Source of the DNA: Candidatus Avispirillum sp.
GTDB lineage: Bacteria > Bacillota > Clostridia > Oscillospirales > CAG-272
Reading direction: 5' to 3'
Assembly (NCBI GenBank): GCA_045656825.1
Contig: JAZORY010000062.1
Location: 1 to 63,444, forward strand
DNA length: 63,444 nucleotides
The position numbers were made by a program, and so were the translations under genes. The notes under the pieces were generated by a model, which made no database searches, was not told where the DNA came from, and worked only from the letters and a program-made list of their open reading frames with translations. Positions 14,688 through 63,444 of the stretch are shown one piece after another; position 1 is the stretch's first letter, and each line of letters starts with the position of its first letter.

Positions 14688-14695
14688 GAAAATAA

Positions 14696-16316: not shown

Positions 16317-16461
16317 TTGGTATACCTCTCTTTTTTCATAACAGATTAATTATACAACAAAGGCACAAATATGTAAACAGATTTTTTGCCTTTAATTTGT
16401 AAACAAAGAATTTCGCGGGGCATACTGATTGTAACACTCACTGATATAAAAAGGGGAAAGC

Positions 16462-17499
16462 ATGATACAAGACAAGCTGAAAACAATAGCAATATACGGC
16501 ATCGGAGGAGCATTTTTTCTCGGTCTTTTATGGCTCACCTTAAAATTTGCTCTGCCCGTTCTGCTTCCGTTTGCAATTGCCTTTTTCCTATCCTGCCTCA
16601 TTCGAGGAGGAGCAAAAAGGCTGAGCTCTCTGACAAAAATGAGCGAAGGCATCCTATGCGCCATTCTGCTTTTCTCCGGACTTGCCGCACTGGGCGTTCT
16701 TATTTGGTTCAGCGCCGCAACAGCAATAAAGAGGCTCTGCTCCGCAATCACGGAAATTTTCTCTCAGCCGGAAGGCACGAATATGCTATCCGAGCTCAGC
16801 TCATCCCTCTCAGACTATGCCAATCGGCTCCTTGGAGAAGACTTTGCCGTATCCCTTGAAAATTTCCTCTCAAGAGCAATCTCTCAGATAAGCTCTCATA
16901 TCGCATCCTCCACAGCTTCAATCTTCTCAGCTCTCCCATCATTCGCAATAGGACTTGCAATCTCCGTTGCTGCGCTTTTCTATTTTACCTTCGGATATGA
17001 CAAAACAGCCGCTGCCATCAAATGCATACTGCCAAAAAATCAAAAGGATAATATATGCAAAGGGGTTTCGCTGCTTTCCAAAGGCTTAGGCAGATTTCTG
17101 CGCGCATATTCCACCATAATCCTCGTAACGTTCACAGAGCTTTTTGTCGGATTTTTGATTCTGAGAATCGATCATGCTTTCATCCTTGCCGCCATAATAA
17201 GCATAGTTGATTTCCTTCCCATAATCGGAGTTGGAGGAGTGCTTATACCCTGGGCTGCCACAAGCCTTTTTATGAAAAAAACAGGACAAGCAATAGGCCT
17301 TGTCGTTATAACTGCAATCGTTTGGGCAATTCGTCAGCCTGTTGAATCCAAGCTTATAGGGCGAGGCGCAGGTGTTCATCCTATATTCGCACTGGCATCG
17401 GTTTACACGGGATTTCGTATGGCAGGAGTTTTTGGCATGGTAGCAGCACCCGTGCTGCTCACCGCTGTTTCCGTAGTGCTGAGAGAAAAGAATCGCTGA
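16462..17499 (+). CDS. ytvI: YtvI-like sporulation membrane protein (AI-2E transporter family)
   Basis: LLPFAIA, DFLPIIGVG..LIPW, RQPVESKLIG, GVHP, GMVAAP. Confidence 0.8.
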   Translation: MIQDKLKTIAIYGIGGAFFLGLLWLTLKFALPVLLPFAIAFFLSCLIRGGAKRLSSLTKMSEGILCAILLFSGLAALGVLIWFSAATAIKRLCSAITEIFSQPEGTNMLSELSSSLSDYANRLLGEDFAVSLENFLSRAISQISSHIASSTASIFSALPSFAIGLAISVAALFYFTFGYDKTAAAIKCILPKNQKDNICKGVSLLSKGLGRFLRAYSTIILVTFTELFVGFLILRIDHAFILAAIISIVDFLPIIGVGGVLIPWAATSLFMKKTGQAIGLVVITAIVWAIRQPVESKLIGRGAGVHPIFALASVYTGFRMAGVFGMVAAPVLLTAVSVVLREKNR

Positions 17500-17522
17500 T
17501 AATATTGTCAACCTTTTTTTGA

Positions 17523-17557
17523 AAGGGTGCCGACCTTCTTCCAACGTCGGCACCCTT
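17523..17557 (+). terminator. Hairpin after ytvI
   Basis: AAGGGTGCCGAC-N11-GTCGGCACCCTT followed by T-rich sequence. Confidence 0.7.
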
Positions 17558-17601
17558 GTGATTTTATATTTTAATAAGCCTAAAAATCCCCAAATGATAA
17601 A

Positions 17602-17630
17602 TTGACATACATACTGATAAGTGATATAAT
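17602..17630 (+). promoter_or_regulatory. Perfect sigmaA promoter of the hydrogenase operon
   Basis: TTGACA-17-TATAAT with extended TG. Confidence 0.9.
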
Positions 17631-17640
17631 AATTATTAGG

Positions 17641-17658
17641 TTGTGTTTTAGTGCACAT
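17641..17658. promoter_or_regulatory. Candidate Rex-like operator
   Basis: TTGTG-N8-CACAT just downstream of the -10; partial match to TTGTGAA-N4-TTCACAA. Confidence 0.35.
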
Positions 17659-17696
17659 TTTTGATCGAATTAACTAAACGTAAGAGGTAAAATAAA

Positions 17697-17936
17697 ATGA
17701 AAGTTACAGTTTGTATCGGTTCATCCTGCCATCTGAAAGGCTCACGTCAGGTTGTTGAAGTGCTCCAGAAGCTTATCGCAGAAAACCGCCTTGAAGGCAA
17801 GGTTGAGCTCAGCGGAACATTCTGCATGCAGAATTGCCAGGCGGGCGTTTGTGTTTCTGTCGACGACAAGGTTTGCTCTGTTTCTCCCGAAACAGTTGAT
17901 GAATTTTTCAGAAACGAAATTCTCGCAAAGGCATAA
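17697..17936 (+). CDS. hfsA: Thioredoxin-like [2Fe-2S] ferredoxin (HfsA-like)
   Basis: VCIGSSCHLKGS and FCMQNC cysteine motifs. Confidence 0.85.
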   Translation: MKVTVCIGSSCHLKGSRQVVEVLQKLIAENRLEGKVELSGTFCMQNCQAGVCVSVDDKVCSVSPETVDEFFRNEILAKA

Positions 17937-17979
17937 TTACGACTATCCCCCAAAATTCTACGGAAAGGATTTTTGAATA

Positions 17980-19650
17980 ATGGCAGAATTCCTCAGACTG
18001 AAAAAGTCCAATTGCAAAAACTGCTCCAAATGCATCCGCCATTGTCCCGTTAAAAGCATCCGCTTTTCAGGAAATCAGGCAAATATAATCGGCAACGAAT
18101 GTATCCTCTGCGGACATTGCTTTGTTGTTTGTCCCCAGAATGCCAAGGAAATTGCAGACGGAATCGAAACCGCTAAGGTTCTTATTGATTCCGGCGCTCC
18201 CGTTTATGCAAGTATCGCCCCCTCTTTTATTGCTAACTACGAAAACGTTGGCATTGATAACCTGCGCGATGCTCTCGTTAAGCTGGGATTTGTCGGCGCT
18301 GAAGAAACAGCAGTTGGCGCAACCATAGTTAAAAAGGAATACGAGCGCCTTCTCTCCGAGGGTACAAAGGACGTTGTTATCAGCTCTTGCTGCCATTCCA
18401 TAAATCTGCTTATTCAGAAATATTTTCCTCATCTTCTCCCCTATCTTGCAGACGTTAAAAGTCCCATGCAGGTCCATGCAGAATGGATAAAAGAGGTTTC
18501 TCCCGATGCAAAGGTGGTCTTCATCGGTCCGTGCGTTGCCAAAAAGGACGAGGCAGAAAGATACGGCGCAGTTGATGCCGTTCTCACCTTTGAGGAGCTT
18601 GCAAAATGGCTCAAGGAAGAAAATATCGAAATCAAGCAGGGCAAGGACTCAACCGATGAAAGCCTTGCAAGATTTTTCCCCACAACAGGCGGCGTTCTCA
18701 GAACTATGACTGAGCGCAACCCCATATATAAATATCTCGCTATCGACGGCGTTGAAAACTGTATCGCCGCTCTTGAGGATATTGCCAAAGGAAAAATCCA
18801 TCGCTGCTTTATTGAAATGTCAGCTTGTGCAGGAAGCTGCACGGGCGGTCCCGTTATGGAAAAATATCATAACTCCCCCGTTAAAAATCAGCTGAACGTT
18901 ATGGACTATGCAGGCGAGCTCGACTTCCCCGTTGAAAAGCCGGAGGGTCTTAAGCTCGAAAAGGAATTTGAGGCAATTGATAAAAAAATGGTTCAGCCCT
19001 CAGAGCGTGAGATCACGGAAACTCTTCGCAAAATGAGCAAGACCACTCCCGAGGACGAATTGAATTGCGGCTCCTGCGGATATAAAACCTGCCGCGAAAA
19101 AGCAATCGCTATCATTCAGGGAAAGGCCGACGTTTCCACCTGCCTGCCATATCTGAGAGAAAAAGCAGAATCCCTCTCCGATAATATTATGACAAATTCT
19201 CCCAACGGAATTCTGCTTCTTAACGAAAACCTTGAAATACAAAAAATAAACAACGTAGCCCTCCGAATCGTCAATATGCGAAATGCAGCTGACCTTATGG
19301 GAGAGCCCGTTGTCCGCATCCTTGACCCCTCCGCTTTCCTGCAGGTTATGAACACAGGAAACGTTATCAAGGACAAAAAGGTTTATCTTGCGGAATACGG
19401 CAAATACGTTGAACAAAATATCGTTTACGATAAAAACTACCACACTCTTCTCTGCATCCTGCGCGATATCACCGAGCAGGAAACTGCACGCGAGCATAGA
19501 GACAATATTAACCGACAGACTATCGAAACCGCTGACCGCGTTGTAGAAAAGCAGATGCGCATCGTTCAGGAAATAGCTTCCCTTCTCGGCGAAACAGCTG
19601 CCGAAACGAAAATAGCGCTCACAAAGCTCAAGGAGTCTATCGATGAATAA
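17980..19650 (+). CDS. hfsB: Sensory [FeFe]-hydrogenase-like protein with FeS and PAS domains (group C, HfsB/HydS-like)
   Basis: 2x[4Fe-4S] N-terminus; variant H-cluster motifs SSCCHS, GPCVAKKDE, EMSACAGSCTGG; NCGSCGYKTC; C-terminal PAS and MRIVQEIASLLGE. Confidence 0.88.
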   Translation: MAEFLRLKKSNCKNCSKCIRHCPVKSIRFSGNQANIIGNECILCGHCFVVCPQNAKEIADGIETAKVLIDSGAPVYASIAPSFIANYENVGIDNLRDALVKLGFVGAEETAVGATIVKKEYERLLSEGTKDVVISSCCHSINLLIQKYFPHLLPYLADVKSPMQVHAEWIKEVSPDAKVVFIGPCVAKKDEAERYGAVDAVLTFEELAKWLKEENIEIKQGKDSTDESLARFFPTTGGVLRTMTERNPIYKYLAIDGVENCIAALEDIAKGKIHRCFIEMSACAGSCTGGPVMEKYHNSPVKNQLNVMDYAGELDFPVEKPEGLKLEKEFEAIDKKMVQPSEREITETLRKMSKTTPEDELNCGSCGYKTCREKAIAIIQGKADVSTCLPYLREKAESLSDNIMTNSPNGILLLNENLEIQKINNVALRIVNMRNAADLMGEPVVRILDPSAFLQVMNTGNVIKDKKVYLAEYGKYVEQNIVYDKNYHTLLCILRDITEQETAREHRDNINRQTIETADRVVEKQMRIVQEIASLLGETAAETKIALTKLKESIDE

Positions 19651-20815
19651 CCTCTGTATCGACATCGGCTATCAAAGCCTCAATCACGTTGGTGAGCAGC
19701 TTTGCGGCGACCATATCGATATCGTCGAGGCTGACGAAAACTCAACCGTTGTAGTTTTGGCAGACGGACTGGGCAGCGGCGTTAAGGCAAGTATTCTTTC
19801 AACTCTGACCTCTAAGATCATTTCAACCATGCTTGCAGCAGGTCTTTCCATAGAGGATTGCGTTGAAACAATCGCAGCAACCCTTCCGGTTTGCTCTGTT
19901 CGCGGAGTTGCTTATTCAACATTCACTATTATACATATCATCAACAATGAGGAAGCAGATATAATCCAGTATGACAACCCTCAGGTTATCCTCCTCCGCA
20001 ACGGCGAGAACTACGATTATCCCAAAACGGAAATGATTCTGGGCGATAAGAAAATATACCGCTCAAGAATAACGCTTCAGGAGGATGATATCTTCGTTGC
20101 CATGAGCGACGGATGCGTTCATGCAGGCGTCGGTCTCACCCTCAACTTCGGTTGGGAACGCAAGGAGATCATAAGCTTCCTTGAAACCTTTGCTCACGTT
20201 GGATTTACCGCAAAAACCCTTGCAACGATGCTGGCAGACGAATGTAATAAGCTCTACGGCTTCGAGCCCGGCGACGACACAACGGTTTGCGCCATAAGAG
20301 TCCGCCGCCGCGAGCCTATGAATCTTTTGTTCGGTCCTCCCTCAAATCCCGACGATGCAAACAGAATGATGTCTCTCTTCTTTGCAAAGCAGGGAAAGCA
20401 TATTGTTTGCGGAGGAACAACGTCATCAATTGCTGCCAAATATCTTGGCAAACCCCTGAAGCCCAGCCTCAGCTTCTTCGACCCTGAAATACCGCCCACC
20501 GCGGAGCTTGACGGCGTCGATCTGGTTACAGAAGGCGTTATCACGGTCAATCGCGTTGTGGAATATGCCAAGGACCATCTGGGCGAAAACAAATGCTATG
20601 AAAAGTGGAGCGTTGCCAGAGACGGCGCTTCCCTTATATCCCGTCTGCTCTTTGAAGAAGCAACGGACATAAATTTCTTCGTTGGACGAGCAGTTAACCC
20701 TGCCCACCAAAATCCCGACCTCCCCATCAACTTCCATATCAAAATGAACTTGGTTGAGGAGCTGTCAGCCTGCCTTAAAAAAATGGGCAAAAAAATCAAA
20801 GTTATCTATTTCTGA
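19643..20815 (+). CDS. hfsC: SpoIIE/PP2C-family Ser/Thr phosphatase (HfsC-like)
   Basis: CGD, LADGLGSG, AYSTFT, MSDG, GDDTT. Confidence 0.88.
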   Translation: MNNLCIDIGYQSLNHVGEQLCGDHIDIVEADENSTVVVLADGLGSGVKASILSTLTSKIISTMLAAGLSIEDCVETIAATLPVCSVRGVAYSTFTIIHIINNEEADIIQYDNPQVILLRNGENYDYPKTEMILGDKKIYRSRITLQEDDIFVAMSDGCVHAGVGLTLNFGWERKEIISFLETFAHVGFTAKTLATMLADECNKLYGFEPGDDTTVCAIRVRRREPMNLLFGPPSNPDDANRMMSLFFAKQGKHIVCGGTTSSIAAKYLGKPLKPSLSFFDPEIPPTAELDGVDLVTEGVITVNRVVEYAKDHLGENKCYEKWSVARDGASLISRLLFEEATDINFFVGRAVNPAHQNPDLPINFHIKMNLVEELSACLKKMGKKIKVIYF

Positions 20816-20828
20816 GAGGTGAAATTCA

Positions 20829-22271
20829 ATGGCTAAGATCAGAAAGTTTGACACAAAGGTTCAGTATCTTAAATATAAGGTGCTTCGCGAGGTTGCCCGC
20901 TACGCTTGGCAGGGAACTCTGGCGGAAAACCTTCTTAACATCCCCGAGATCATCATTCCCGGTAAGAATCCCACAATGCGCTGCTGCGTTTATAAGGAAA
21001 GAGCTGTCGTTGGCGAGCGAATCAAAATGGCTATGGGCGGAGATAAATTCAACCCCAACGTTATCGAGGTTATAGATATCGCCTGCGATGAATGTCCTAT
21101 GGGCGGATACGAGGTTTCCGCAGCTTGCCGCGGATGCCTTGCTCATCGCTGCGAAGACGTTTGTAAGCGCGGAGCGATTACATTTGACGAGCACCAGAAG
21201 GCTCATATAGACAAATCAAAATGCGTTGAATGTGGACAGTGCGCAAAGGTTTGTCCTTACAGCGCCATCACAAACAATAAGCGCCCCTGCGAAGCAGCTT
21301 GTAAGGTCAAGGCTATCACAATGGGCGATCATAAGCAGGCAAAGGTTGATAACGATAAATGCATCTCCTGCGGAGCCTGCGTATATCAGTGCCCCTGGGG
21401 AGCTATCAACGATAAGAGCTTTATTCTTGACGTTGTTGATTTCATCCGCCACAGCGATGAAAATAAAAACTATAAGGTTTACGCCATCGTTGCTCCCTCC
21501 ATATCCAGCCAGTTTACATATGCCAAGATGCCTCAGGTTACAAGCGGTATCAAGGCTCTCGGCTTCTATTCCGTTATCGAAGCGGCTCTTGGTGCTGATA
21601 TGGTTGCGCTCTCCGAGGCAAGAGAGCTGGTTGAAAAGGGCTTCCTCACATCCTCATGCTGCCCCGCATTCGTTTCCTATGTTAAGGGACAGTTCCCCGA
21701 CCTTGCTCCTCATATTTCTCACAACCTCTCTCCCATGGGTGCGCTGGCTAAATATATCAAGAAAACAGACCCCACGGCAAAGGTTGTATTCATCGGACCC
21801 TGCACAGCAAAGAAGATGGAATTCCAGAAGGAAGAGGTTCGACACTACGTTGACTCCGTTATCACATTCGAAGAGCTTCAGGCGCTCTTTGACAGTAAGG
21901 ATATCGACATTACAACCCTTGAGGGAACAGAGCTTGACAATGCTTCCTACTACGGCAGAATTTTCGCCCGCGTTGGCGGACTTTCCGATGCAGTTGTTCA
22001 GGCGCTCAAGGAACAGGGCATTGACAACTTTGATCTGAAGGCAGTTCCCTGCGACGGTATCGAAGCATGCAAGATCGCTCTTCTCAAAGCATCCAAAAAG
22101 GTTCTGGACGGCAACTTTATTGAAGGTATGGCGTGCACCGGCGGATGTATCGGCGGGGCAGGGTGCCTTACACACGGAGAAAAGAACAAGGCCGACGTTG
22201 ACCGCTACGGCAAAGAGGCAATGGAAAAAACTATCAAGGACGCAACTAGCGTGCTTACAATGCTTGACTGA
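20829..22271 (+). CDS. hfsD: Monomeric [FeFe]-hydrogenase (group B, HfsD-like)
   Basis: Multiple ferredoxin CxxCxxCxxxC motifs; H-cluster TSSCCPAF, GPCTAKKME, EGMACTGGCIGG. Confidence 0.9.
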   Translation: MAKIRKFDTKVQYLKYKVLREVARYAWQGTLAENLLNIPEIIIPGKNPTMRCCVYKERAVVGERIKMAMGGDKFNPNVIEVIDIACDECPMGGYEVSAACRGCLAHRCEDVCKRGAITFDEHQKAHIDKSKCVECGQCAKVCPYSAITNNKRPCEAACKVKAITMGDHKQAKVDNDKCISCGACVYQCPWGAINDKSFILDVVDFIRHSDENKNYKVYAIVAPSISSQFTYAKMPQVTSGIKALGFYSVIEAALGADMVALSEARELVEKGFLTSSCCPAFVSYVKGQFPDLAPHISHNLSPMGALAKYIKKTDPTAKVVFIGPCTAKKMEFQKEEVRHYVDSVITFEELQALFDSKDIDITTLEGTELDNASYYGRIFARVGGLSDAVVQALKEQGIDNFDLKAVPCDGIEACKIALLKASKKVLDGNFIEGMACTGGCIGGAGCLTHGEKNKADVDRYGKEAMEKTIKDATSVLTMLD

Positions 22272-22275
22272 TAAC

Positions 22276-22304
22276 AAAAAGGAAGGAGCAATCCTTCCTT
22301 TTTT
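22276..22304 (+). terminator. Hydrogenase operon terminator
   Basis: AAAAAGGAAGGA-GCAA-TCCTTCCTTTTTT. Confidence 0.9.
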
Positions 22305-22375
22305 GCCACCGTTCATAAAATATTCATTATAAAATGGTATAATGAAGCTTAAGAAACAGAAAGGCGGTTTTTGCT

Positions 22376-23425
22376 TTGAAAAAACTGATCGTAAGAATTA
22401 TTTGTGCAGCTATCAGCTGTATTCTTATATGTGCACCTCTTTCCTCCTGCACTTCCCTTAGTTCATCTGCTAAGGAAACAGAAGCTGTTATGAAGGTGGG
22501 CGAATATGACGTGCCCTACGAGCTATATCGATATCTCGTTCTCAACTATAAGCTCCAGCTTTCCGCAGATGAGGAGGACTGGGCAGACAACGAAAAGGCA
22601 GAGGCTCTGACTCAAAAAATTGAAAAGCTTGTTGAGGATTCTCTCCGCGATTTCTATGCAGTTCTCTCTCTTTCAGCAGAGTTCGGCGTCGACCGCGAAA
22701 ATCCCGCTGTCAATGCAGCTGTTGAGGCTGAGCTTGAAGCAACCCGTAACGGCTATAAAAACCAACGAGAATATATCAAGGCGCTGGCTGAAGGATATAT
22801 GAACCACAGCACCTACGAGCTTCTTCAGACAAATGCAATCTGTTCCGACGAGCTTTACCATAAAATGATGAACGACGGAGCGATCACCTCTGATGAAAAA
22901 TCCCTTCGCGAATATATGGCAAGCGATAAGTTCATCCGCATAAAACAAATTCTGATCGTTGGCGAAAGCAACAAAACCGCGTACGACGGAACTATTTATA
23001 TCCCTGAAAAAGCTCACACGGACGAGGAAGCAAAGGCTATCGCAGATCTTGTACACTCCAAGGCTGTTGCAGGAGAGGATTTTGATTCTCTCGTTGCAGA
23101 ATACGGCGAATCCTTCCAGATGTTTGGCAATAAGGATGGATATTACATCTGCGAGGGCTATTGGGACGACGTTAACAACGATGCCGCTTTTGCCCTCGAT
23201 ATCGGCGAAATCAGCCCCGTTATAGAAAGCGAGCAGGGATACAGCATTTTCCAGAGATGCGAAAAAGAGGATGCTTATATTGAAAAGCATTTCGACGAGC
23301 TTTGCAATAACTATACAGAAGCACAGTTTTCTCTCGCCGTTGAAAAGAGAGCGGCAGAATTTGAAATCACCAAAACCGAGCTTTACAGCTCTATCTCAAT
23401 CAAGGATATGACCTGGAAGGACTGA
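22376..23425 (+). CDS. PrsA/SurA-like parvulin PPIase lipoprotein
   Basis: TTG start, lipobox LSSC, KQILI..GEDFDSLVAEYGE..AAFALDIGEISPVIESEQGYSI. Confidence 0.8.
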   Translation: MKKLIVRIICAAISCILICAPLSSCTSLSSSAKETEAVMKVGEYDVPYELYRYLVLNYKLQLSADEEDWADNEKAEALTQKIEKLVEDSLRDFYAVLSLSAEFGVDRENPAVNAAVEAELEATRNGYKNQREYIKALAEGYMNHSTYELLQTNAICSDELYHKMMNDGAITSDEKSLREYMASDKFIRIKQILIVGESNKTAYDGTIYIPEKAHTDEEAKAIADLVHSKAVAGEDFDSLVAEYGESFQMFGNKDGYYICEGYWDDVNNDAAFALDIGEISPVIESEQGYSIFQRCEKEDAYIEKHFDELCNNYTEAQFSLAVEKRAAEFEITKTELYSSISIKDMTWKD

Positions 23426-23431
23426 TAAAAA

Positions 23432-24436
23432 GTGAAACGACGCTACCGAACCTATACGGCTAAAAAATATAAGCTTCCCAAACGAATCTTATTTTTTGGA
23501 ATTTGCGCCATCCTTATTTTCTGCTTTGCACTCATAGTCGGAAATAATCTGAAAAAGAGAATGGAAAATGCAGATATAAACAAAGAGCCTGTTGAAACTC
23601 AGGATTTCGATACGCCCGATATGCTTGATTCGTCAGACAAGGGCAACGCTGAGCACCCTGAGGAAAAAGCAAAAGTTAAAGCAGGATATCTTGACGTTGA
23701 TCTTCTCTTTGTCCCCGAAGATGACAGCGAACAAAAGGCAATCACTCTTAAAAGCATAATTGATTCTCTCTATGCAGAGGGCTTTAATGCAGTTTCCTTC
23801 CCCGTATTTGAAAACGACAAGCTGACTTATGCATCAAAAGCGACGGAGGACTTTTCCCGTCTGCCTGCAAGCGAATCTATCATCTCCTTTGAAGAGCTGA
23901 CCGATGCCATCGCTTATGCAAAAAGCAAAAATATGACCACATCAGCTATATTCAAAAAAGGAAACGACGACATACTCGACTCCCTTATATGCAGCGAGCT
24001 TTCCGAAATCGGATTTGATGAGATCATCCTCAGCGGATTTGAAAATATCCTCACCGAAAAGGGAGGCGAAACAGCTGAATGTATCAAATATCTCAAAGCT
24101 ATCCGCTCAAACGTTAAAGACTCCCACATTTCACTTTCACTTAAGCCCTCAGCTTATACCTATGCAAGAAATTCATATCATATAGAAAAGCTCTTTTCTT
24201 ATACGGAATTTCTTACAATAGATATGACTGAGCTTGATGCCGACAGCGCAGGAGAGCTTTGTGCAAATATCGCAGGAAGCTTTTCAACGTATATGCTCCG
24301 CCCCTTGATAAAGGGAGAAGCGCAGGATATAGCAAAGCTTTTGGTCGAAAGAGAAATCACCTCCGTACAGTACGTTTCAACGATTCCCGAAATCGAAGAA
24401 GACACTACTAATGTTGATACTACTATCGCTGAATAA
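23432..24436 (+). CDS. Membrane-anchored protein with a degenerate glycoside-hydrolase-like (DUF4015-like) domain
   Basis: Basic N-terminus plus one TM helix; GFNAVSF..KLTYAS and GFDEIILSGF segments. Confidence 0.5.
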   Translation: MKRRYRTYTAKKYKLPKRILFFGICAILIFCFALIVGNNLKKRMENADINKEPVETQDFDTPDMLDSSDKGNAEHPEEKAKVKAGYLDVDLLFVPEDDSEQKAITLKSIIDSLYAEGFNAVSFPVFENDKLTYASKATEDFSRLPASESIISFEELTDAIAYAKSKNMTTSAIFKKGNDDILDSLICSELSEIGFDEIILSGFENILTEKGGETAECIKYLKAIRSNVKDSHISLSLKPSAYTYARNSYHIEKLFSYTEFLTIDMTELDADSAGELCANIAGSFSTYMLRPLIKGEAQDIAKLLVEREITSVQYVSTIPEIEEDTTNVDTTIAE

Positions 24437-24448
24437 TACAATTATAAA

Positions 24449-25390
24449 ATGAACGATAAAAATAAATATTTTGACATAGAAGCTTCTTCTGCTTTTCTTT
24501 GCGATATTGAAGGAAACTTTCTGTTAGCAAACAAAAGCGCTGAGGTGAGCTCTCACGTCTCCCTTGTTAAAACAAACATTTCAGAATATATTTCAAGCAC
24601 AGATGCTCTGCGCTATGATCTGACAATGAAAAGCAAAAAGCCGCGGCCATTCATAGCCGCGGCAAAAATTGTTTGTGGGAGCTGTTATTTCGCCGTTATC
24701 CCACACAATATATCCGATTGCAGATTTGCAGCGGTAGCTATCCTGAACAGCGCACACAGCGCATCGGAGTTTATTGCTTCCGCCGATCTGTTTACACCAA
24801 ATGATATCAGATTTCTGTGCGAGAAAATAGAATCCACCACAATCTTAAACGATTGCTATCACACAAACGCCGTTTTTGATGCAAAAAAGGCAATTCGCAT
24901 GCTGATGTCTGAAATTAATGCAAACAATCCCACATCACTCAGCTTCAATTTCTTATGTCAGTCTGATGAATTTATGTGCGACGTAGGCCTTAACAGCTTC
25001 ATTTCCATAATGATCGCAATTATATTCGTGCTTAATAAAGTTTCTGCAAGCTCTCCGGTTGAAATATCCGCTAAATCCACTGACGAGGCATTCACCGTTG
25101 CCTTTGAAACTGAAATTGACCATGGATTTATTTCAAATCAAGCATCCACCAAAAAGAAACTTGATCTGGAGGATGTAAACTTCAGCTTTCTACGCTTTGC
25201 ATCAGAATGTTCAGACTGCAGACTTGACGTCTCACTTGAAAATTCAAGATTGAAAATCTCCTCTGCCTTCTCGAATATTACTGACGACTTAGACTTTAAG
25301 AGCAGCTCGCCTATGGCGAATTTCGGAGAAATGTTGAAAAAGTCTATCGCAGCAATCAGTGCTATATACAAAGAAGAAGCCCAAGAATAA
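24449..25390 (+). CDS. Hypothetical protein; PAS-like N-terminus and possible degenerate HATPase-like C-terminus
   Basis: FLCDIEGNFLLANKSA is PAS-like; no H-box or G-boxes recognisable. Confidence 0.5.
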   Translation: MNDKNKYFDIEASSAFLCDIEGNFLLANKSAEVSSHVSLVKTNISEYISSTDALRYDLTMKSKKPRPFIAAAKIVCGSCYFAVIPHNISDCRFAAVAILNSAHSASEFIASADLFTPNDIRFLCEKIESTTILNDCYHTNAVFDAKKAIRMLMSEINANNPTSLSFNFLCQSDEFMCDVGLNSFISIMIAIIFVLNKVSASSPVEISAKSTDEAFTVAFETEIDHGFISNQASTKKKLDLEDVNFSFLRFASECSDCRLDVSLENSRLKISSAFSNITDDLDFKSSSPMANFGEMLKKSIAAISAIYKEEAQE

Positions 25391-56010: not shown

Positions 56011-58759
56011 TGTTGTTATTTGCTCCGCAACATTTCTTGTATTTTTTGCCGCTTCCACAAGGACAAGGGTCGTTTCTTCCAATCTTTTCAGATGCCTTTT
56101 TAACGACGGGCTTCTTCTTAAGCGTTCCGTCTCCCGCGCCTGCAAATCCTGCTGCAACGGGCTTTGCAACCTCAACTCGCTTGATCTGCTCGCGGGGCAT
56201 AACTGAAAGAAGCATTCTCACTGTGTCGTCGCGGATCATCATAACCATTTCATCAAAGAGATCTGCACCAACGATTCTGTATTCACTGATGGGATTACGC
56301 TGAGCATATGCCTGAAGTCCGATAGTTTCCATAAGAGAATCCATCGCCTCAAGATGATCCATCCATTTCTGGTCAACGTTGCGAAGAAGAACAACTCTTT
56401 CAACCTCGCGGAAGTTTTCTTCGCCGAAAACGTTCTGCTCCTTATCCTCATATATCTTCATAGCTCGTGAAAGAAGCTCTTCACGAACCTGATTTCTTGC
56501 CTCTGCCGCATTATCACCAAGATCATTGAAATCTTCCTCTTTGCAGAGAAGACCCATATATTTTGCCTTGAGAGATGCAAGATCCCAGAGAGCCATATCC
56601 TCTTCGTGCAGGAACTGATCAACGCTGTCGCCGATAGTTCCCTCAATCATGGAAATCATCTTCTGCTTGAGAGAGCCTCCCTCAAGAACCTCCTGACGCT
56701 GCTTATAAATGATGGTTCTCTGCTGATTCATAACGTCGTCATAAGCAAGAACGTTCTTTCTGCGCTGGAAGTTGTTATCCTCAACCTTGCGCTGAGCACT
56801 TTCGATAGCATCGGAAAGCATCTTAAGATCAATGGGATCGTCCTCACCAAGCGCACCGCCAAGACGATTTACCATATTGTACATACGGTCGCCGCCAAAG
56901 AGGCGCATAAGATCGTCCTGAAGAGAGATATAGAATCTGGACTGACCGGGGTCGCCCTGACGTCCGCTTCGACCTCTCAGCTGGTTATCTATACGACGGG
57001 CATCGTGGCGCTCTGTGCCGATAACGAAGAGACCGCCTGCCTCGCAAACCTTTTCGGCTTCGGGGCGGATCTCGCTCTGATATTTGTTGTAAAGCTCCTT
57101 GAAATAAGCTCTTGCGGCAAAAACCTCCTCAGAAACAGACTGAGAGGAGCCTGTTGCCAGCATGATCATTTCTTCCTCATAGCCCTCGCGGCGCATCTGA
57201 CTCTTCGCAAGAAACTCTGCATTACCACCGAGAAGAATGTCAGTTCCTCGACCAGCCATATTAGTTGAAATAGTTACCGCACCAAGCTTACCTGCCTGAG
57301 CAACGATCTCCGCTTCCTTTTCGTGATACTTAGCGTTAAGAACGTTATGGGGGATGCCCTCCATCTTAAGCTTTCTTGAAAGAAGCTCGGACTTTTCAAC
57401 GGAAACCGTACCAACAAGAACGGGCTGTCCCTTAGCATGACATTCCTTGATCTGCTTGATAATCGCTCGGTCCTTGCCTGCAACTGTTTTGTAAACAACG
57501 TCGCTGCGGTCCACTCTGATCATAGGCTTGTTTGTGGGAACCTCAACAACGTCCAGATTGTAAATTTCCTGAAACTCCGTTTTCTCGGACAATGCTGTAC
57601 CTGTCATACCGGAAAGCTTATTGTACATTCTGAAGTAGTTCTGGAAGGTGATCGTTGCGATAGTTCTGTTTTCTCTCTTGATCTCAACGCCTTCTTTTGC
57701 CTCTATTGCCTGATGGAGACCATCGGAATATCTTCTTCCGGGCATAATACGGCCTGTGAAGCTGTCTACGATCATAACCTCGTTATCCTTGATAACGTAG
57801 TCTGTGTCGCGCTTCATAATACCGTGAGCACGGATAGCCTGATAAACGTGATGAGAGATATTTGCATTTTCAGGGTCGGCAAGGTTTTCGATTCCGAAAA
57901 ATTCCTCTGCCTTCTTAACACCGTTTGTTGTGAGAGTGCAGCTTCTTGCCTTTTCGTCAACAATGTAATCTTCCTTGATATACTCGTGATCTTCCTTTGA
58001 GTCAAGCTCCTTAATAACGAAGGCGCTCATTCTCTTTGCAAGCTGCTCTGCCTTTGCATAAAGCTCGTCGCTCTTGTTTCCGTGGCCTGAAATAATAAGA
58101 GGAGTTCTTGCTTCGTCAATAAGAATGGAGTCCACCTCGTCAACGATGGCAAAGTTGTGGCCTCTCTGAGTCTGCTGCTCCTTGTAGGTTACCATGTTAT
58201 CACGGAGATAATCAAAGCCCAGCTCATTGTTCGTACCATACGTGATATCGCAGTTGTATGCCTTCTGCTTTTCAGCCTTTGTCTGATCGTGAATAACGAG
58301 ACCGGTCGTAAGTCCAAGGAATTCATGAACTCGGCCCATTTCCTCCTGACCCATTTTAGCAAGATATTCGTTTACCGTTACAACGTGAACACCCTTGCCC
58401 TCAAGAGCGTTAAGGTATGAAGGGAGAACCGCAACGAGAGTTTTTCCCTCACCTGTTTTCATTTCGGCAATTCTTCCCTGATGGAGAAGGATACCGCACA
58501 TCAGCTGAACTCTGAAGGGGCGCTTTCCAAGCACTCTGTCTGCCGCCTCGCGAACGAGAGCAAATGCCTCGGGGAGAATATCGTCAAGAGTTTTGCCAGC
58601 GGCAAGCTCTGCCTTGAAGGTGTCTGTCATGGCTCTCATTTCAGCATCGCTCATCGCCTTGTATTTATCACCGAGAGCTTCAATTTTGTCTACTATGGGA
58701 ACGATCTTTTTGATCTGCTTTTCGCTGTACGTTCCGAAAATTTTAGTGATTAAACTCAT
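55997..58759 (-). CDS. secA: Preprotein translocase ATPase
   Basis: MKTGEGKT, DEVDSILIDEARTPLIIS, QLRGRSGRQGDPG, SEC-C GRNDPCPCGSGKKYKKCC. Confidence 0.99.
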   Translation of the reverse strand: MSLITKIFGTYSEKQIKKIVPIVDKIEALGDKYKAMSDAEMRAMTDTFKAELAAGKTLDDILPEAFALVREAADRVLGKRPFRVQLMCGILLHQGRIAEMKTGEGKTLVAVLPSYLNALEGKGVHVVTVNEYLAKMGQEEMGRVHEFLGLTTGLVIHDQTKAEKQKAYNCDITYGTNNELGFDYLRDNMVTYKEQQTQRGHNFAIVDEVDSILIDEARTPLIISGHGNKSDELYAKAEQLAKRMSAFVIKELDSKEDHEYIKEDYIVDEKARSCTLTTNGVKKAEEFFGIENLADPENANISHHVYQAIRAHGIMKRDTDYVIKDNEVMIVDSFTGRIMPGRRYSDGLHQAIEAKEGVEIKRENRTIATITFQNYFRMYNKLSGMTGTALSEKTEFQEIYNLDVVEVPTNKPMIRVDRSDVVYKTVAGKDRAIIKQIKECHAKGQPVLVGTVSVEKSELLSRKLKMEGIPHNVLNAKYHEKEAEIVAQAGKLGAVTISTNMAGRGTDILLGGNAEFLAKSQMRREGYEEEMIMLATGSSQSVSEEVFAARAYFKELYNKYQSEIRPEAEKVCEAGGLFVIGTERHDARRIDNQLRGRSGRQGDPGQSRFYISLQDDLMRLFGGDRMYNMVNRLGGALGEDDPIDLKMLSDAIESAQRKVEDNNFQRRKNVLAYDDVMNQQRTIIYKQRQEVLEGGSLKQKMISMIEGTIGDSVDQFLHEEDMALWDLASLKAKYMGLLCKEEDFNDLGDNAAEARNQVREELLSRAMKIYEDKEQNVFGEENFREVERVVLLRNVDQKWMDHLEAMDSLMETIGLQAYAQRNPISEYRIVGADLFDEMVMMIRDDTVRMLLSVMPREQIKRVEVAKPVAAGFAGAGDGTLKKKPVVKKASEKIGRNDPCPCGSGKKYKKCCGANNNNEEN

Positions 58760-58881
58760 TATGTTCCTCTCTTTTCTTCACAAGGAAGAAAACGATATTT
58801 TACTTATATATTATATATCTCAGTATTATACAACAACTTCGCCGCAAATAATATACCAATTTGTAAATTTTATTAATCTTA

Positions 58882-58910
58882 TTTACTTTTTTTATGACAA
58901 ATGATATACT
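58882..58910 (+). promoter_or_regulatory. sigmaA promoter directly before the trmL ATG
   Basis: TTTACT-17-TATACT with extended TG, 7 nt before ATG 58918. Confidence 0.6.
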
Positions 58911-58917
58911 AATGTGT

Positions 58918-59409
58918 ATGGGAAAGATAAATATTGTATTATGGGAGCCGGAAATCCCTCAGAACACCGGCAATATCGCGCGCACCTGCGCCGTAACCGG
59001 CGCAAGCCTACATCTCATCGAGCCTCTCGGCTTCAAAATAGACGATGCAAAGCTGAAGCGCGCAGGACTAGATTATTGGCATAGCCTTGATATCACCTTT
59101 TATAAAAACGTCGACGAATTCTTCGAGAAAAATCCCGACGCCGCCTTTTATTGCTTCACAACAAAAGCTCCGAGAGCGTATAGCGAGGTGGAATATCCCC
59201 TCCCCGTCTATCTCTTTTTCGGCAAAGAAACAAAGGGCTTGCCCGAGGATTTTCTCCACGAAAATTATGAAAAATGCGTGCGACTGCCTATGCGCGACGG
59301 TCAGCGAAGCCTGAATCTGTCAAACACAGTTGCCGTTGCAGTTTACGAGGTGCTCCGTCAGCATGGCTTCCCCGAGCTTGAGGCTGAAGGAAAGCTCACA
59401 ACTTATTAA
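58918..59409 (+). CDS. trmL: tRNA (cytidine34-2'-O)-methyltransferase
   Basis: PEIPQNTGNIAR, KRAGLDYW, FGKETKGLP, RSLNLSN. Confidence 0.95.
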   Translation: MGKINIVLWEPEIPQNTGNIARTCAVTGASLHLIEPLGFKIDDAKLKRAGLDYWHSLDITFYKNVDEFFEKNPDAAFYCFTTKAPRAYSEVEYPLPVYLFFGKETKGLPEDFLHENYEKCVRLPMRDGQRSLNLSNTVAVAVYEVLRQHGFPELEAEGKLTTY

Positions 59410-59426
59410 AAGAGAGGAATAAAACT

Positions 59427-60044
59427 ATGAAAATTCTTTTTCAGGGCGATAGTATAACAGACGGCGGCCGCGACCGCAATAATCCTCATCACGTTGGCTG
59501 GGGCTTTGCGCTCTATGCAACAAGATATCTCACAGCCCGCCATCCTGAAATGGATTTCGAATTTCTTAATTTCGGCATCGCAGGAAATCAGAGCTCTGAC
59601 CTTGTTGGCAGATGGACAACAGATTGCATTGATTGGCAGCCCGACGTTGTTTGCGTTATGATAGGCGTTAACGATACGTGGCACCGTGCACATAACCGCC
59701 AGTGGCTCTCCGATGAGCAGTTTGAAGAGAACTACCGCAACATTCTGGAAAGAGTTAAAAAGGAAACAAATGCTAAGATCATTATGATGGAGCAGTTTTT
59801 GCTTCCCGCAGAGGATAAGGAATATTTCCGCGAGGACGTCAATCCTAAAATAATGATCACAAGAAAGCTTGCAAGAGAATATGCGGACGTTTATATTCCT
59901 CTTGACGGATATTTTGCCGCTGCCTGCGTGGGAAAGGATTTCTGGTTCTGGTCTGAGGACGGAGTTCATCCTAATAACAACGGCTGCGCCCTTATCGGTC
60001 GCCACGTTGCAGATGCTCTTGATAAAATCATTGAGAATAAGTAA
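59427..60044 (+). CDS. SGNH/GDSL hydrolase
   Basis: FQGDSIT, GIAGN, IGVND, DGVHP. Confidence 0.92.
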   Translation: MKILFQGDSITDGGRDRNNPHHVGWGFALYATRYLTARHPEMDFEFLNFGIAGNQSSDLVGRWTTDCIDWQPDVVCVMIGVNDTWHRAHNRQWLSDEQFEENYRNILERVKKETNAKIIMMEQFLLPAEDKEYFREDVNPKIMITRKLAREYADVYIPLDGYFAAACVGKDFWFWSEDGVHPNNNGCALIGRHVADALDKIIENK

Positions 60045-60093
60045 ATAAAAACGGCGGACATCCGCCTTGATATATCTTGCTATAAATGACAGC

Positions 60094-60127
60094 AAAAAAA
60101 CACAGAGTTTTGAACTCTGTGTTTTTT
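60094..60127. terminator. Bidirectional terminator carried inside the cassette
   Basis: AAAAAACACAGAGTT..AACTCTGTGTTTTTT. Confidence 0.88.
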
Positions 60128-60170
60128 ATATGAGTTAAAAAATTCTATTAGCATCAAGTTTTTCTATGAT

Positions 60171-62951
60171 TTAACGTTTGTCTGTCAATTTTTGATACAT
60201 CTTCATAAGCTCTGCAACACATTCGGATTCGGTGTTGAGTTTGCCCCAGAAACCATAGGCGCGCATAACTGCTTTGTCATTTTCCTGATGTGCCTTGCGG
60301 AGTTCGGGCGGCATAGCAACTTCGTCATACAAATCTGCAAGAGTGCAATCGGGATAGAGTGCGCGAGCATCAAGAATTGCCTGCGCAGTTTTTTCAATAG
60401 CCGCTTTCTGTTCGTCGGTAGGTGTCGGCCAGAGGAAATTATTGTATACGATATTAACCGAATATCTATAACGCATTTCTAATCTTCCACAAACCGCACG
60501 CATCCAAGCCATATGAACATTAGAAGTCAAAACGCCAAAATGATAAATTGTTGCATCCGGTACAAATGATGCAGCATTACTTGCTATTACGTTTTTATCA
60601 AGATATCCTATTGGTACATAACGTCTATTCTCGGAAGATGTTGCAGGTATCATTAGGAAATCAGAGTTAGGTTGCTTAATTTCCATAAAACGAGTAGGAT
60701 ATGCTGCATATTCACGTGTTGCCGCTTTAACACTGGCTGCTCTAAACTCACGCACTTTTTCGACTCTTTCCATCACATGCGGCAAAGAGCGAAGGTCTTT
60801 TGGAGAGGCATTTAACAACCATAGACACCAACGAGTATGACCATTTATAAAATCGTCTGAACCCATAAAAGGTCTAAAATAGAGATCGGCATTAGGTTCT
60901 ATTGCCAAGAATTCTTCCTTTTCTTGTTCAGTGAAAATCAGATTACCACCCTCAACGGGTTTTCCGCCACTACTCATAGAGGGAACATCTGCTAGGGGTT
61001 TTGTTCTGCTTTCTACAAATACATCGGGTGCTTCTATAAGGTAAGCGTTGATATTTTTAACAAGCTGCATTCTTTCAGAAGAATATAACTGCTTTTCACG
61101 TAGATTATAGGCGGTACTAAATCCAACTATTACACAGTGAACGTGTGCTTTAACACTTGCTTCACTATCCCAACGGAATGTACGGTGAGCAAAGTCAATA
61201 TGAATATTAAAACGGTCATATAGTGGTTTCCATACAGCAGCCACCTGTTCACCTTGTGTAATAGAATTGGTCGATACAAACGCAACACGGATATTTGTGT
61301 TTGCAATCATTTGGGCAGCCTTAAAATACCAACCAGCAACATAGTCAATTTTTCCGGCGGTTTTGTATGGTTTGCCTTTTTCATCTACATAAATTGAGAG
61401 AATATCCTGTTTTTGCTCTGTTGTCTGTAACGAGTAACCAACAAAAGGCGGATTACCCATTATATAATTGAGCTGGTTCTTCGGAACAACAGTTTCCCAA
61501 TCAGTAGTAAGAGCATTGCCTTCTACAATATTTGCATAGGATTTAAGGGGTAGGAAATCAAGGATAACGTGCGTAATAAGCTCCGTTTCCTTCATCATTT
61601 GGCTTTCAGCAATCCAAAGTGCAGTCTTGGCAACAGTAACGGCAAAGTCGTTGATTTCAATACCATAAAATTGACCGATAGACACTTTGATAATGTCTGT
61701 AAAATCAATTAACATTTGTCCTTGCTTAACAACCTCAATAGCCTCATTTTCCAAACGGCGCAGAGAAATATAGGTTTCGGTCAAAAAGTTACCCGAACCA
61801 CAAGCAGGATCAAAGAAAGTAAGGCTACCGAGTTTTTCACGGAAAGTATGAATTTTTCTTTCTCTTGTTTTTTCAACCTTAATTGCTTTGATTTCTTCCA
61901 ATTCTTCGCGCAATTCATCGAGGAATAGCGGGTCAATAACTTTATGTATGTTTTCGATAGAAGTATAGTGCATACCCCCGCTACGACGGGTTTCGGGATT
62001 CAAAGTGCTTTCAAATACTGCACCGAAAATAGTGGGGCTGATATCACTCCAGTCGAAATCCTCACTTGCATTATGGAGAAGCAAATCACGAATATCATCA
62101 TTCATTTGCGGAATTTCAATATTTTCATCCGCAAACAGTCCACCATTTACATATGGGAATGAGGCAAGTTGCTCATCTTCATACGGATCACGATCTTCAG
62201 GTTTTGTGTCAAGGATTTTGAACAGTTCAATCAAAGCCTTTCGCATATCGCGTGCAGAGAAAGACTTGATATAATTATGGAATTTGGAGTGCCCGCCGAA
62301 TACACCGGCATCTTCTGCATAAAGGCAAAAAACAAGACGGACGATGAGCTTGTTAAGGCTTTTGAGAGACTCTTCATTTTGGGGATCGTGATACTGTTTT
62401 AAGATTTCATCATACAGTATGCCAACCAAATTACCTGCCTGAATGGAAACTTCCATTTCCCTACGGATATTATCATCGCCGGTATCTACAAGGAACATAA
62501 GACGATAATATTCCTTGGCAAGATCTTTTACAAAAATCTGCTCCGGCTCGCCGTTAGGCTTTTCCATATCATAAACAAGGAATTCTTCGAAATTGCAAGT
62601 TATAATCCAACGAGGACGCTGTGAATACGGCAGAACAGCAGAATAACGCTGTGCCTGTTGGAACGGAGTGAGCAAGGTGCCATCCGACTGTTTGATAGGT
62701 TTGCGAAGGTCTTTATTGCGACCTTTCTGCTCAATAAGCACGTGTGTTGCCGGGATAAAACCATCAATAAAGCTTGTGTGGTCAAGTCGCACTTGTTCCT
62801 CGAATGTAATGAATTTTTCAGGAGCTTCTACACCCAAGACATCACGAAGAAGCGATAGCCAAAACGGTTGGCTTTCTCCCTTTTCATATCCTCTGTCTTT
62901 CCAATATTCAGCAAAGGCTTTCGCAGCAGCTCTTTGTTCTGTGTCGCGCAT
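60171..62951 (-). CDS. MmeI-family Type IIL fused endonuclease/m6A methyltransferase
   Basis: N-terminal IDG..LIEQK nuclease motif, FPYVNGGLF, GMHYTS, DPACGSGNF, GNPPF, STNSITQGEQ, GRLEMRYRYS, LADLYD. Confidence 0.92.
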   Translation of the reverse strand: MRDTEQRAAAKAFAEYWKDRGYEKGESQPFWLSLLRDVLGVEAPEKFITFEEQVRLDHTSFIDGFIPATHVLIEQKGRNKDLRKPIKQSDGTLLTPFQQAQRYSAVLPYSQRPRWIITCNFEEFLVYDMEKPNGEPEQIFVKDLAKEYYRLMFLVDTGDDNIRREMEVSIQAGNLVGILYDEILKQYHDPQNEESLKSLNKLIVRLVFCLYAEDAGVFGGHSKFHNYIKSFSARDMRKALIELFKILDTKPEDRDPYEDEQLASFPYVNGGLFADENIEIPQMNDDIRDLLLHNASEDFDWSDISPTIFGAVFESTLNPETRRSGGMHYTSIENIHKVIDPLFLDELREELEEIKAIKVEKTRERKIHTFREKLGSLTFFDPACGSGNFLTETYISLRRLENEAIEVVKQGQMLIDFTDIIKVSIGQFYGIEINDFAVTVAKTALWIAESQMMKETELITHVILDFLPLKSYANIVEGNALTTDWETVVPKNQLNYIMGNPPFVGYSLQTTEQKQDILSIYVDEKGKPYKTAGKIDYVAGWYFKAAQMIANTNIRVAFVSTNSITQGEQVAAVWKPLYDRFNIHIDFAHRTFRWDSEASVKAHVHCVIVGFSTAYNLREKQLYSSERMQLVKNINAYLIEAPDVFVESRTKPLADVPSMSSGGKPVEGGNLIFTEQEKEEFLAIEPNADLYFRPFMGSDDFINGHTRWCLWLLNASPKDLRSLPHVMERVEKVREFRAASVKAATREYAAYPTRFMEIKQPNSDFLMIPATSSENRRYVPIGYLDKNVIASNAASFVPDATIYHFGVLTSNVHMAWMRAVCGRLEMRYRYSVNIVYNNFLWPTPTDEQKAAIEKTAQAILDARALYPDCTLADLYDEVAMPPELRKAHQENDKAVMRAYGFWGKLNTESECVAELMKMYQKLTDKR

Positions 62952-62987
62952 AATAATCTTTCTCCTATGGAAGTTTAAGACAAAAAC

Positions 62988-63016
62988 ATTATATCATATA
63001 ATAAATTATTATTCAA
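62988..63016 (-). promoter_or_regulatory. sigmaA promoter of the MmeI-like gene
   Basis: TTGAAT-17-TATAAT with extended TG; AGGAGA SD at 62961-62966. Confidence 0.8.
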
Positions 63017-63177
63017 GAACTGTCTCATTCCGCAACAAGCCGAAAAATGCACATCACATTTTCCAAATCTTTAGGATTATTAGAGTTCTACTAGTATCCG
63101 CCGTTTTTGTTTTGACTTCTTACCTAACGTACAACGTTAAAACAATTTATATTACAAAAAAAGACTAATAAAAACCC

Positions 63178-63206
63178 TTGACAAATAAAAACCTATATGA
63201 TAATAT
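63178..63206 (+). promoter_or_regulatory. tRNA promoter
   Basis: TTGACA-17-TAATAT with extended TG. Confidence 0.65.
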
Positions 63207-63231
63207 ATCATTTGCCTTGGCAACAAGCTAA

Positions 63232-63308
63232 GGGCCTTTAGCTCAGTTGGTTAGAGCTACCGGCTCATAACCGGTCGGTCCTGGGTTCGAGTCCCCGAAG
63301 GCCCACCA
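63232..63308 (+). tRNA. tRNA-Ile2 (anticodon CAT, lysidine-modified)
   Basis: 77-nt cloverleaf: GGGCCTT/AAGGCCC acceptor, ACCGG-CTCATAA-CCGGT, TTCGAGT, ACCA end; C4-G69/C5-G68 pairs and overall sequence fit Ile2; one T-stem mismatch. Confidence 0.9.
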
Positions 63309-63348
63309 AAAGAAAAAGCACACCATTTGGTGTGCTTTTTCTTTTGGT
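63305..63348 (+). terminator. tRNA terminator, perfect 21-bp inverted repeat starting in the ACCA end
   Basis: ACCAAAAGAAAAAGCACACCA-TT-TGGTGTGCTTTTTCTTTTGGT. Confidence 0.9.
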
Positions 63349-63362
63349 AGACCTTCATTGAC

Positions 63363-63428
63363 GGGACTCGAAAGGGCGGTCGCATGCCGTAGGCGCGACT
63401 AAAATGCTCCGGTGGAGCATTTTTAGCC
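63363..63428. repeat. Structured tRNA-associated repeat-like element (may extend beyond the window)
   Basis: GGGACTCGAA (anti-T-loop), then hairpins GTCGC..GCGAC and AAAATGCTCC-GGT-GGAGCATTTT. Confidence 0.55.
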
Positions 63429-63444
63429 CGTAGCGCTAAGCTAA

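Follow-up and report, generated by a model that had tools for sequence, protein, structure and literature searches.

Near the right-hand end of contig JAZORY010000062.1 of Candidatus Avispirillum sp. (63,444 nt; the contig was analysed in full and is called the window below), the intrinsic terminator that follows an SGNH/GDSL hydrolase gene is interrupted by 3,029 bp of DNA carrying an intact restriction-modification gene of the MmeI family (Type IIL), and a copy of the same 7-bp direct repeat, ATCCGCC, stands on each half of the broken terminator. The split terminator and its repeat are confirmed by direct reading, and we infer from them that the site was once continuous. The explanation favoured here, with about as much doubt as confidence, is that a foreign fragment of about 3 kb was captured in the SGNH terminator independently of any recombinase. 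The source genome is a metagenome-assembled genome (MAG), 85% complete, and the window insertion is a single event in that MAG.

The split terminator and its repeat

The interrupted site consists of the following parts:

59427-60044, plus strand: SGNH/GDSL hydrolase gene (Pfam Lipase_GDSL_2, E 2.1e-24), with its stop codon at 60042-60044
60047-60066, plus strand: left half of the terminator, an A-tract followed by an entire GC stem-loop of 5 bp, with the T-tract gone (sequence; fold -11.7 kcal/mol)
60060-60066, plus strand: left copy of the direct repeat ATCCGCC, from the centre of the hairpin loop through the 3' GC arm
60067-63095, no strand: inserted DNA, 3,029 bp, GC content 0.3975 (sequence; no alignment to genus relatives)
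63096-63102, plus strand: right copy of the direct repeat ATCCGCC (sequence)
63096-63113, plus strand: right half of the terminator, a 3' stem arm and T-tract with no 5' partner nearby (sequence, fold)

An earlier note on this DNA, made from the letters alone (the original prediction), had claimed that the terminator is split with ATCCGCC on both halves, which can be read directly in the sequence, and that deleting the interval together with one ATCCGCC restores a hairpin, which the folds bear out. Specifically, unrelated sequence occupies the place of the expected T-tract 3' of 60066, and a terminator scan calls the left half on the minus strand only, while on the far side of the insert the right copy of the repeat runs on into GTTTTTGTTTT (63103-63113). 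The repeat is exactly 7 bp long, with mismatching bases adjoining it on either side. When the halves are joined in silico (by script, from the coordinates), they form a 15-pair stem of -24.8 kcal/mol, as compared with -11.7 kcal/mol for the left site and -6.5 kcal/mol for the right site when unjoined.

How readily such a gain arises by chance was estimated by keeping the left site fixed and swapping the right intergenic region for windows of 280 nt drawn at random from the same genome, 1,500 in all. A gain in energy at least as large as the observed one was found in 2 of these 1,500 windows; the control is weaker when absolute energy is taken, which was equal or lower in 50 of 1,500. The 13-mer made up of the repeat and GTTTTT occurs four times in 2.88 Mb (both strands of the 1.44-Mb assembly), and the three copies elsewhere have no adjoining hairpin partner. 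A genome-wide scan of all pairs for split hairpins was also tried and rejected as a test, being swamped by long inverted repeats and chance pairings among which the window case is unremarkable. Therefore, the evidence lies in the pre-defined pair of sites and not in any general rarity of such pairs.

These figures bear on whether there was a simple insertion at all. The half-sites could be coincidental, or they could be left by a complex rearrangement that also flipped the neighbouring tRNA gene (described below), and either is judged highly improbable. Restored hairpins do arise easily over the millions of pairs of an all-against-all genome scan, the region is rich in a repeat family, and the tRNA is oriented unlike its counterparts in two relatives (G013 and G022). 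Against this, chance gave an equal gain in just 2 of 1,500 trials for the pre-defined pair, the two halves lie in direct and not inverted orientation, and the boundaries they mark are those of a foreign, low-GC, single-gene stretch.

The inserted unit and its ends

The features predicted within the insert are these:

60171-62951, minus strand: MmeI-family (Type IIL) restriction-modification gene, 926 aa, intact (Pfam and alignment to MmeI, PDB 5HR4)
62962-62965, minus strand: ribosome-binding site GGAG, 10 nt before the ATG of the MmeI gene (consensus match only)
63016-62988, minus strand: sigma-70-like promoter, TTGAAT-17 nt-TG-TATAAT, with an extended -10 element (promoter scan, consensus match only)
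60094-60127, no strand: two-way intrinsic terminator, a perfect 9-bp stem standing between an A-run and a T-run
63021-63076, plus strand: truncated copy, about 56 nt, of a conserved intergenic motif (79-86% identical matches in genomes of the order)

Enzymes of the MmeI family cut about 20/18 nt from an asymmetric site, the host being protected by methylation of one strand, and they are laid out as an N-terminal nuclease, a helical spacer, an N6-adenine methyltransferase, a target recognition domain and a C-terminal domain. The single open reading frame (ORF) of the interval matches the Pfam families MmeI_N, MmeI_hel, MmeI_Mtase, MmeI_TRD and MmeI_C (E 3e-21 to 2e-87, all well above cut-off), and its product aligns to the MmeI of structure 5HR4 over residues 6-924 against 8-904 (E 9.4e-210). 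In this alignment the 926-aa protein retains a D and an E-Q-K opposite the D and E-M-K of MmeI, as well as methyltransferase motif I (FDPACGSGNF) and the NPPF motif (GNPPFVG), residues that we take to be the catalytic ones. For MmeI, nuclease and methyltransferase activities are described in a single protein (PMC2582602, PMC2731913), and therefore one gene can make up a complete restriction-modification system. The likeness to MmeI of Methylophilus methylotrophus (Type IIL; structure 5HR4, described in PMC4833311) extends to the same five-domain polypeptide aligned end to end; the genomic setting seen here is no part of the definition of the family, and the window enzyme is known from its sequence.

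The promoter, ribosome-binding site and terminator of the insert are predictions at consensus level. The terminator would fold on both strands (-17.7 and -16.9 kcal/mol), as expected of the bidirectional terminator that the insert had been said to bring, and the single 926-aa ORF with its promoter-like site and GGAG fits the claim of one MmeI-like gene with its own promoter and Shine-Dalgarno sequence. A further ORF of 166 aa on the plus strand (62668-63168), antisense to the 5' end of the MmeI gene, spans the right junction and is most likely spurious.

The insert had also been described as richer in AT than its neighbours. Indeed, its GC content of 0.3975, compared with 0.4475 for the genome, puts it within the bottom 3.7% of 2,458 equally long windows. 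Among species-representative genomes (the comparison set has one genome per species, including 31 other genomes of the genus, all of other species), the closest relative of the gene belongs to a MAG of the Acutalibacteraceae (locus L042; 96% identity at the amino acid level). The DNA identity of 90.8% between the two covers 60193-62945, strictly within the ORF, as opposed to only about 68% between the remainder of the L042 locus and the genome of the window, and because of this difference the comparison points to recent acquisition of the MmeI gene by horizontal transfer. In L042 the gene is packed among Fic, AbiU2 and Macro-domain genes, a setting unlike that of the window, whose 63 kb are core genome (PriA, ValRS, DnaB, L9, SecA and others). 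Plasmid, phage and viral-contig collections yielded distant MmeI genes only, at most 70.6% identical at the nucleotide level and, over full-length matches, at most 67% at the amino acid level.

Within the gene, similarity at the DNA level is lost over 60500-61120, the target-recognition part, when the window is compared with L044, L046-L048, G154 and G051, and the N-terminal two thirds and the C-terminus of these relatives remain 78-87% identical. Mosaic exchange of recognition domains is known in the MmeI family and fits this dropout.

The ends of the insert carry no recognizable element termini. Terminal inverted repeats were not found (in register, the two ends coincide at 8 of 30 bases), and the strongest inverted match found locally is internal and weak, its score being reached by 4.2% of shuffles; a Pfam scan of 54 ORFs of the window (50 + 4) gave no integrase or transposase family. 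In these respects the original prediction, which had noted the lack of integrase, transposase and terminal inverted repeats, was accurate. It had also asked whether the ends bound other cargo or an integrase elsewhere, and the answer was negative: no second copy of the insert was found in the same genome, and the 27-mer of the left end, with up to 3 mismatches, occurs in none of 300 other genomes of the family. When the inserted DNA was compared with 400 other genomes of the order, it matched within 60160-62969 only, with the exception of one motif of about 60 nt, and similarity to L042 and ten other loci compared was confined to 60178-62969. Flanks of the insert gave only chance-level matches of 14-20 nt to the loci compared; an 18-nt match of the first bases of the insert to L046/L024 lies inside a gene and was dismissed as chance. 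The ends are thus shown not to be conserved and are read as arbitrary, and the notion of a defined cassette moved in trans is not supported, there being no inverted repeats and no ends in common with any other MmeI gene.

The exceptional motif (63021-63076) is present in 19 of the 400 order genomes, often twice per genome and near contig ends; nine more genomes matched just the AT-rich promoter stretch. In an alignment of 16 copies, the copy in the window is without the flanking hairpins of the motif, and the similarity stops 19 nt short of the right end of the insert. We read it as passenger DNA, the right flank having been cut from an intergenic region of the donor and not representing the terminus of an element, which is what random cutting would be expected to leave.

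The full motif (loci L126-L144) measures 75-115 nt and comprises a terminator-like hairpin, a 9-bp hairpin and a short palindrome. Its copies adjoin unrelated housekeeping and accessory genes, often 40-160 nt from contig ends, and the motif may be a small mobile or RNA element. No Rfam family was found for it; at one locus (L139), a match to Gut-1 RNA lies about 170 nt upstream of the motif, below threshold (47.7 bits, with a gathering score of 50). A pseudoknot was looked for and rejected, since no covariation of loop and upstream sequence was visible by eye across the copies. The right flank was also considered as the tail of a Type I specificity gene, on the strength of a match in G387, a weak lead in which the intergenic motif overlaps the end of hsdS; this reading was dropped because the motif recurs in unrelated contexts elsewhere.

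Proposed entry into the terminator

The favoured explanation may be set out in steps. A fragment of about 3 kb would have been cut, with arbitrary ends, from a defence-gene neighbourhood of another gut Clostridia lineage (the presumed donor), and captured by illegitimate joining in the intrinsic terminator just 3' of the SGNH gene. A staggered break in the hairpin, with one strand cut at the loop centre and the opposite strand cut where the GC arm ends, could account for the repeat: filling in of the stagger and joining to the foreign DNA would duplicate ATCCGCC. A circular molecule entering by a single crossover at 7 bp of microhomology would give an identical product. The two-way terminator of the insert would then replace the broken host terminator, so that read-through from both the SGNH and the MmeI gene is still stopped, and because the unit brings its own two-way terminator the insertion should be nearly neutral for its neighbours.

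There is a published class of events to which this may be compared. Insertion of restriction-modification genes with long target duplications of variable length, and with no mobility genes, was reported by Nobusato et al. in 2000 (as cited in PMC2853133), and Furuta, Abe and Kobayashi (2010; PMC2853133) describe such insertions for all restriction types, with repeats that in many cases extend across a start or stop codon and so spare the target gene. The window shares with this class a lone restriction-modification unit, a direct repeat of the target, a site at a gene end and an intact target gene, and no mobility gene is linked to it among 54 ORFs scanned in the window, which ends at 63444. 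It differs in that its target is a terminator hairpin and in that its repeat is 7 bp long, not the variable tens to hundreds of bp of the class. By analogy, the insertion appears to work like this class at its short extreme, without being a proven member.

The site itself can be followed into relatives. SGNH orthologues of the genus relatives end at the same position, and the nearest genomes (G013, G017 and G023, with 80-82% DNA identity across the region compared and as much as 86% when the SGNH gene is taken by itself) have a terminator of the same build after the gene (A-tract, GC stem, 4-nt loop and a T-run with a one-base interruption), with differing stem sequences and with downstream DNA that cannot be aligned to the window. 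All 31 other genomes of the genus have a terminator in this position, built on other stem sequences, and none has an MmeI gene at the SGNH site. The exact 23-mer of the left site had no match in the species-representative genomes; the exact 20-mer was found in four metagenome contigs, none otherwise related to the window, in one of which it runs on into a full terminator, showing just that the hairpin exists elsewhere. Public sequencing runs containing 57000-60066 of the window were also sought and none were listed.

The neighbour to the right of the insert is a tRNA gene:

63232-63308, plus strand: tRNA with anticodon CAT (ARAGORN; Rfam tRNA, 65.8 bits), with a promoter-like site at 63178-63206

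The assembly has three CAT tRNAs, of which this is the third, the others being initiator-like (contig C40) and elongator-like (contig C31); by elimination, and from an acceptor stem that we take to be Ile-like, it is probably tRNA-Ile2. In the matches listed for the 31 genus genomes, G013 and G022 are the only ones with the SGNH gene and this tRNA on one contig, and there the tRNA faces the SGNH gene, and since it thus faces the other way from that in the window, the region must have been rearranged since the species split. G013 (L002/L123, G013:C19 at about 7,370-7,630) and G017 (L003, G017:C7) have an 8-nt fragment of the 3' end of this tRNA after the SGNH terminator, and these fragments resemble the scars or duplicated attachment sites of an element integrating at the 3' end of the tRNA. 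G013 has in addition a second copy of about 80 nt of tRNA-flanking sequence.

The last 160 nt of the contig (63283-63444), from the 3' end of the tRNA through its terminator to some 100 nt past it, are part of a repeat family, with at least 8 partial copies on other contigs of the same genome and many more in every relative in the genus. The contig probably ends at 63444 because of this multi-copy repeat.

Several observations weigh against capture without a recombinase. No empty site was seen (the scans with the 23-mer and 20-mer found no relative of it, the genomes compared all being of other species), and the neighbourhood of SGNH gene and tRNA in the same direction occurs in none of the matches listed for the 31 genus genomes. 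To the right of the insert, just 342 bp of contig remain, ending within the multi-copy repeat, so that a recombinase gene could stand immediately past the contig end; a tyrosine integrase of 479 aa is encoded on contig C28, which is 2.2 kb long and unplaced (the sole other tyrosine recombinase match in the assembly resembles a housekeeping Xer protein). The length of 7 bp is far below that of the published 'long' duplications and within the range of transposase duplications and tyrosine-recombinase overlaps, and the staggered break is purely conjectural.

Much of this would suit an enzyme acting in trans, the 7-bp repeat then being the footprint of a transposase or tyrosine recombinase and the unit either a non-autonomous element or all that is left of a larger island whose remaining genes were lost or replaced, the latter being close to the alternative offered in the original prediction (an eroded remnant of a larger element). 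We consider this unlikely. As a matter of general knowledge, 7 bp fits both a transposase duplication and a tyrosine-recombinase core; the sequence to the right of the insert stops at 63444; an integrase is encoded on the unplaced contig C28; and the tRNA marks an integration spot in the genus, as its 3'-end fragments near the SGNH gene of G013 and G017 show. Furuta et al. (PMC2853133) also give cases of restriction units whose duplications are as short as 8 bp, but those cases have inverted repeats of 26-65 bp and the window has none. The ends of the insert were not found in its own genome, in the 300 family and 400 order genomes, in plasmids or in phages, and the repeat begins at the dyad centre of the hairpin and does not straddle it, which misfits a recombinase binding both arms. 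The assembled genome also has no match to rve or resolvase families, a point that counts for little because MAGs tend to lose mobile elements.

Repeat-bracketed MmeI genes elsewhere

A survey of 80 other MmeI loci, in which the longest exact direct repeat was sought between 800 nt upstream and 800 nt downstream of the gene, places the proposed capture in a wider setting. Of the 69 loci with at least 300 nt on both sides, four have exact flanking repeats, of 28, 43, 44 and 157 bp (L044, L087, L063 and L095, respectively), as compared with none reaching 20 bp and two reaching 16 bp among 1,500 mismatched upstream/downstream pairs. When mismatches are allowed, the four repeats extend to about 56-365 nt (about 330, 150, 56 and 365) at 85-95% identity, and their copies lie 3.0-3.8 kb apart:

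L095, 246-611 and 3496-3859: direct repeats
L044, 3659-3851 and 6797-6988: direct repeats
L087, 1721-1872 and 5476-5634: direct repeats
L063, 3915-3970 and 6918-6973: direct repeats

All four of these solitary, repeat-bracketed MmeI genes are in other gut Clostridia MAGs, and they are of the published form of insertion with long target duplication, which they fit better than the window does. The repeat of L063 consists of the last codons of a gene (as read by eye), and that of L044 includes an apparent gene 3' end and its terminator. The insert of L063 stops within the first 23 codons of a Macro-domain gene. This stretch (L063, 6844-6922) has 87% identity (E 1.4e-11) with the beginning of the L042 Macro gene, some 900 bp downstream of MmeI there; therefore, the insert of L063 was cut from a defence-gene neighbourhood. 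The inner flanks of the five repeat-bracketed units (the four and that of the window) have nothing in common. Such units are, on this comparison, pieces of donor DNA with arbitrary ends and not elements with defined termini.

No other locus repeats the situation of the window itself: in none of the 80 is a short repeat combined with a restored intergenic hairpin, and in the best candidates (L089, L094 and L048) one copy lies in coding sequence by eye, and the matches were set aside as chance. The original prediction had gone as far as suggesting that insertion is aimed at terminators, and this null result leaves the suggestion without support beyond the window itself. Least probable of the explanations considered here is the existence of minimal, self-insulating defence cassettes that form a family and home in on terminator hairpins. 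This would account for an insertion that falls within a hairpin and starts at the loop centre, and for a unit that supplies a replacement terminator; terminator-seeking mobile elements do exist, in the form of the group IIC introns (as described in PMC12584367). Besides the 0 of 80, however, the units have no ends in common, the Rfam search of 59900-63444 gives no RNA family, ribozymes included, other than the tRNA, and landing at the 3' end of a gene is equally explained by selection against disruptive insertions, a point made by Furuta et al. (PMC2853133). What stands of the original inference is a foreign, self-contained MmeI unit with a 7-bp duplication inserted into a terminator, with no recombinase gene of its own, and what is not supported is the cassette moved in trans and the targeting of terminators.

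Two known kinds of element were also considered and set aside, the second on inspection by eye. A group IIC intron would have an intron ribozyme and a reverse transcriptase, but the Rfam search shows no intron in 59900-63444 and MmeI is the only gene. An integron gene cassette has an attC site at the 3' end of its gene and boundaries at the G/TT core, and its recombination makes no 7-bp duplication; the 3' hairpin of the insert is, by eye, a perfect terminator without attC-like bulges or core sites.

Other systems resemble the window in part. The CIMEs (cis-mobilizable elements) of Streptococcus thermophilus lack an integrase, sometimes carry restriction genes as cargo and are flanked by short direct repeats. 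The window likewise has cargo between short direct repeats and no recombinase of its own; the ends of CIMEs, however, are common to integrase-bearing relatives, whereas no relative of the ends of the insert was found in its own genome or in the family and order genomes compared, and the insert differs in this from a CIME-like element or satellite, whose ends would be common to recombinase-bearing elements. Phage 'morons' are units of promoter, gene and terminator, similar to the insert in forming a self-contained transcription unit between resident genes and different in that the window unit stands in a chromosomal core region and not in a prophage. The units of Xanthomonas oryzae and Neisseria gonorrhoeae treated in PMC2853133 have a short direct repeat (8 bp) and, as in the window, no transposase of their own, but they end in inverted repeats of 26-65 bp; the insert has no inverted repeats inside its target duplication and so differs from a transposon-like restriction unit.

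The capture favoured here would make the window a further example of a known and poorly understood way for restriction genes to enter genomes without a recombinase. How defence genes spread without a carrying mobile element is still unexplained, and published examples of such insertions come mostly from naturally competent Proteobacteria. With the window and the four repeat-bracketed loci, the pattern now reaches uncultured gut Clostridia and their single-gene Type IIL systems, and a short, exact duplication in a hairpin of known geometry offers a concrete picture of the break that received the DNA. On its own, the window is one unverified event in a MAG and carries modest weight, and the four further solitary genes are the more general point.

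A broader reading is that the solitary MmeI-type genes of gut Clostridia are self-sufficient movers, entering as naked fragments, free of any recombinase, at hairpin breaks or gene 3' ends and leaving duplications that range between 7 bp and several hundred bp, the break being made by their own nuclease or by host processing of extruded hairpins. This we hold to be decidedly doubtful. If true, it would amount to a general, enzyme-light route by which defence genes are gained, and the terminator case would give the geometry of the break at base resolution, with its limits at the loop centre and where the stem arm ends.

Elsewhere in the same genome, contig C67 has a 7,085-bp segment (about 1,100-8,200), possibly a transposon or an invertible segment, that lies between inverted repeats of about 28 bp that are nearly perfect, and contig C70 (about 11,700-24,500) contains many long, GC-rich hairpin repeats with a common core.

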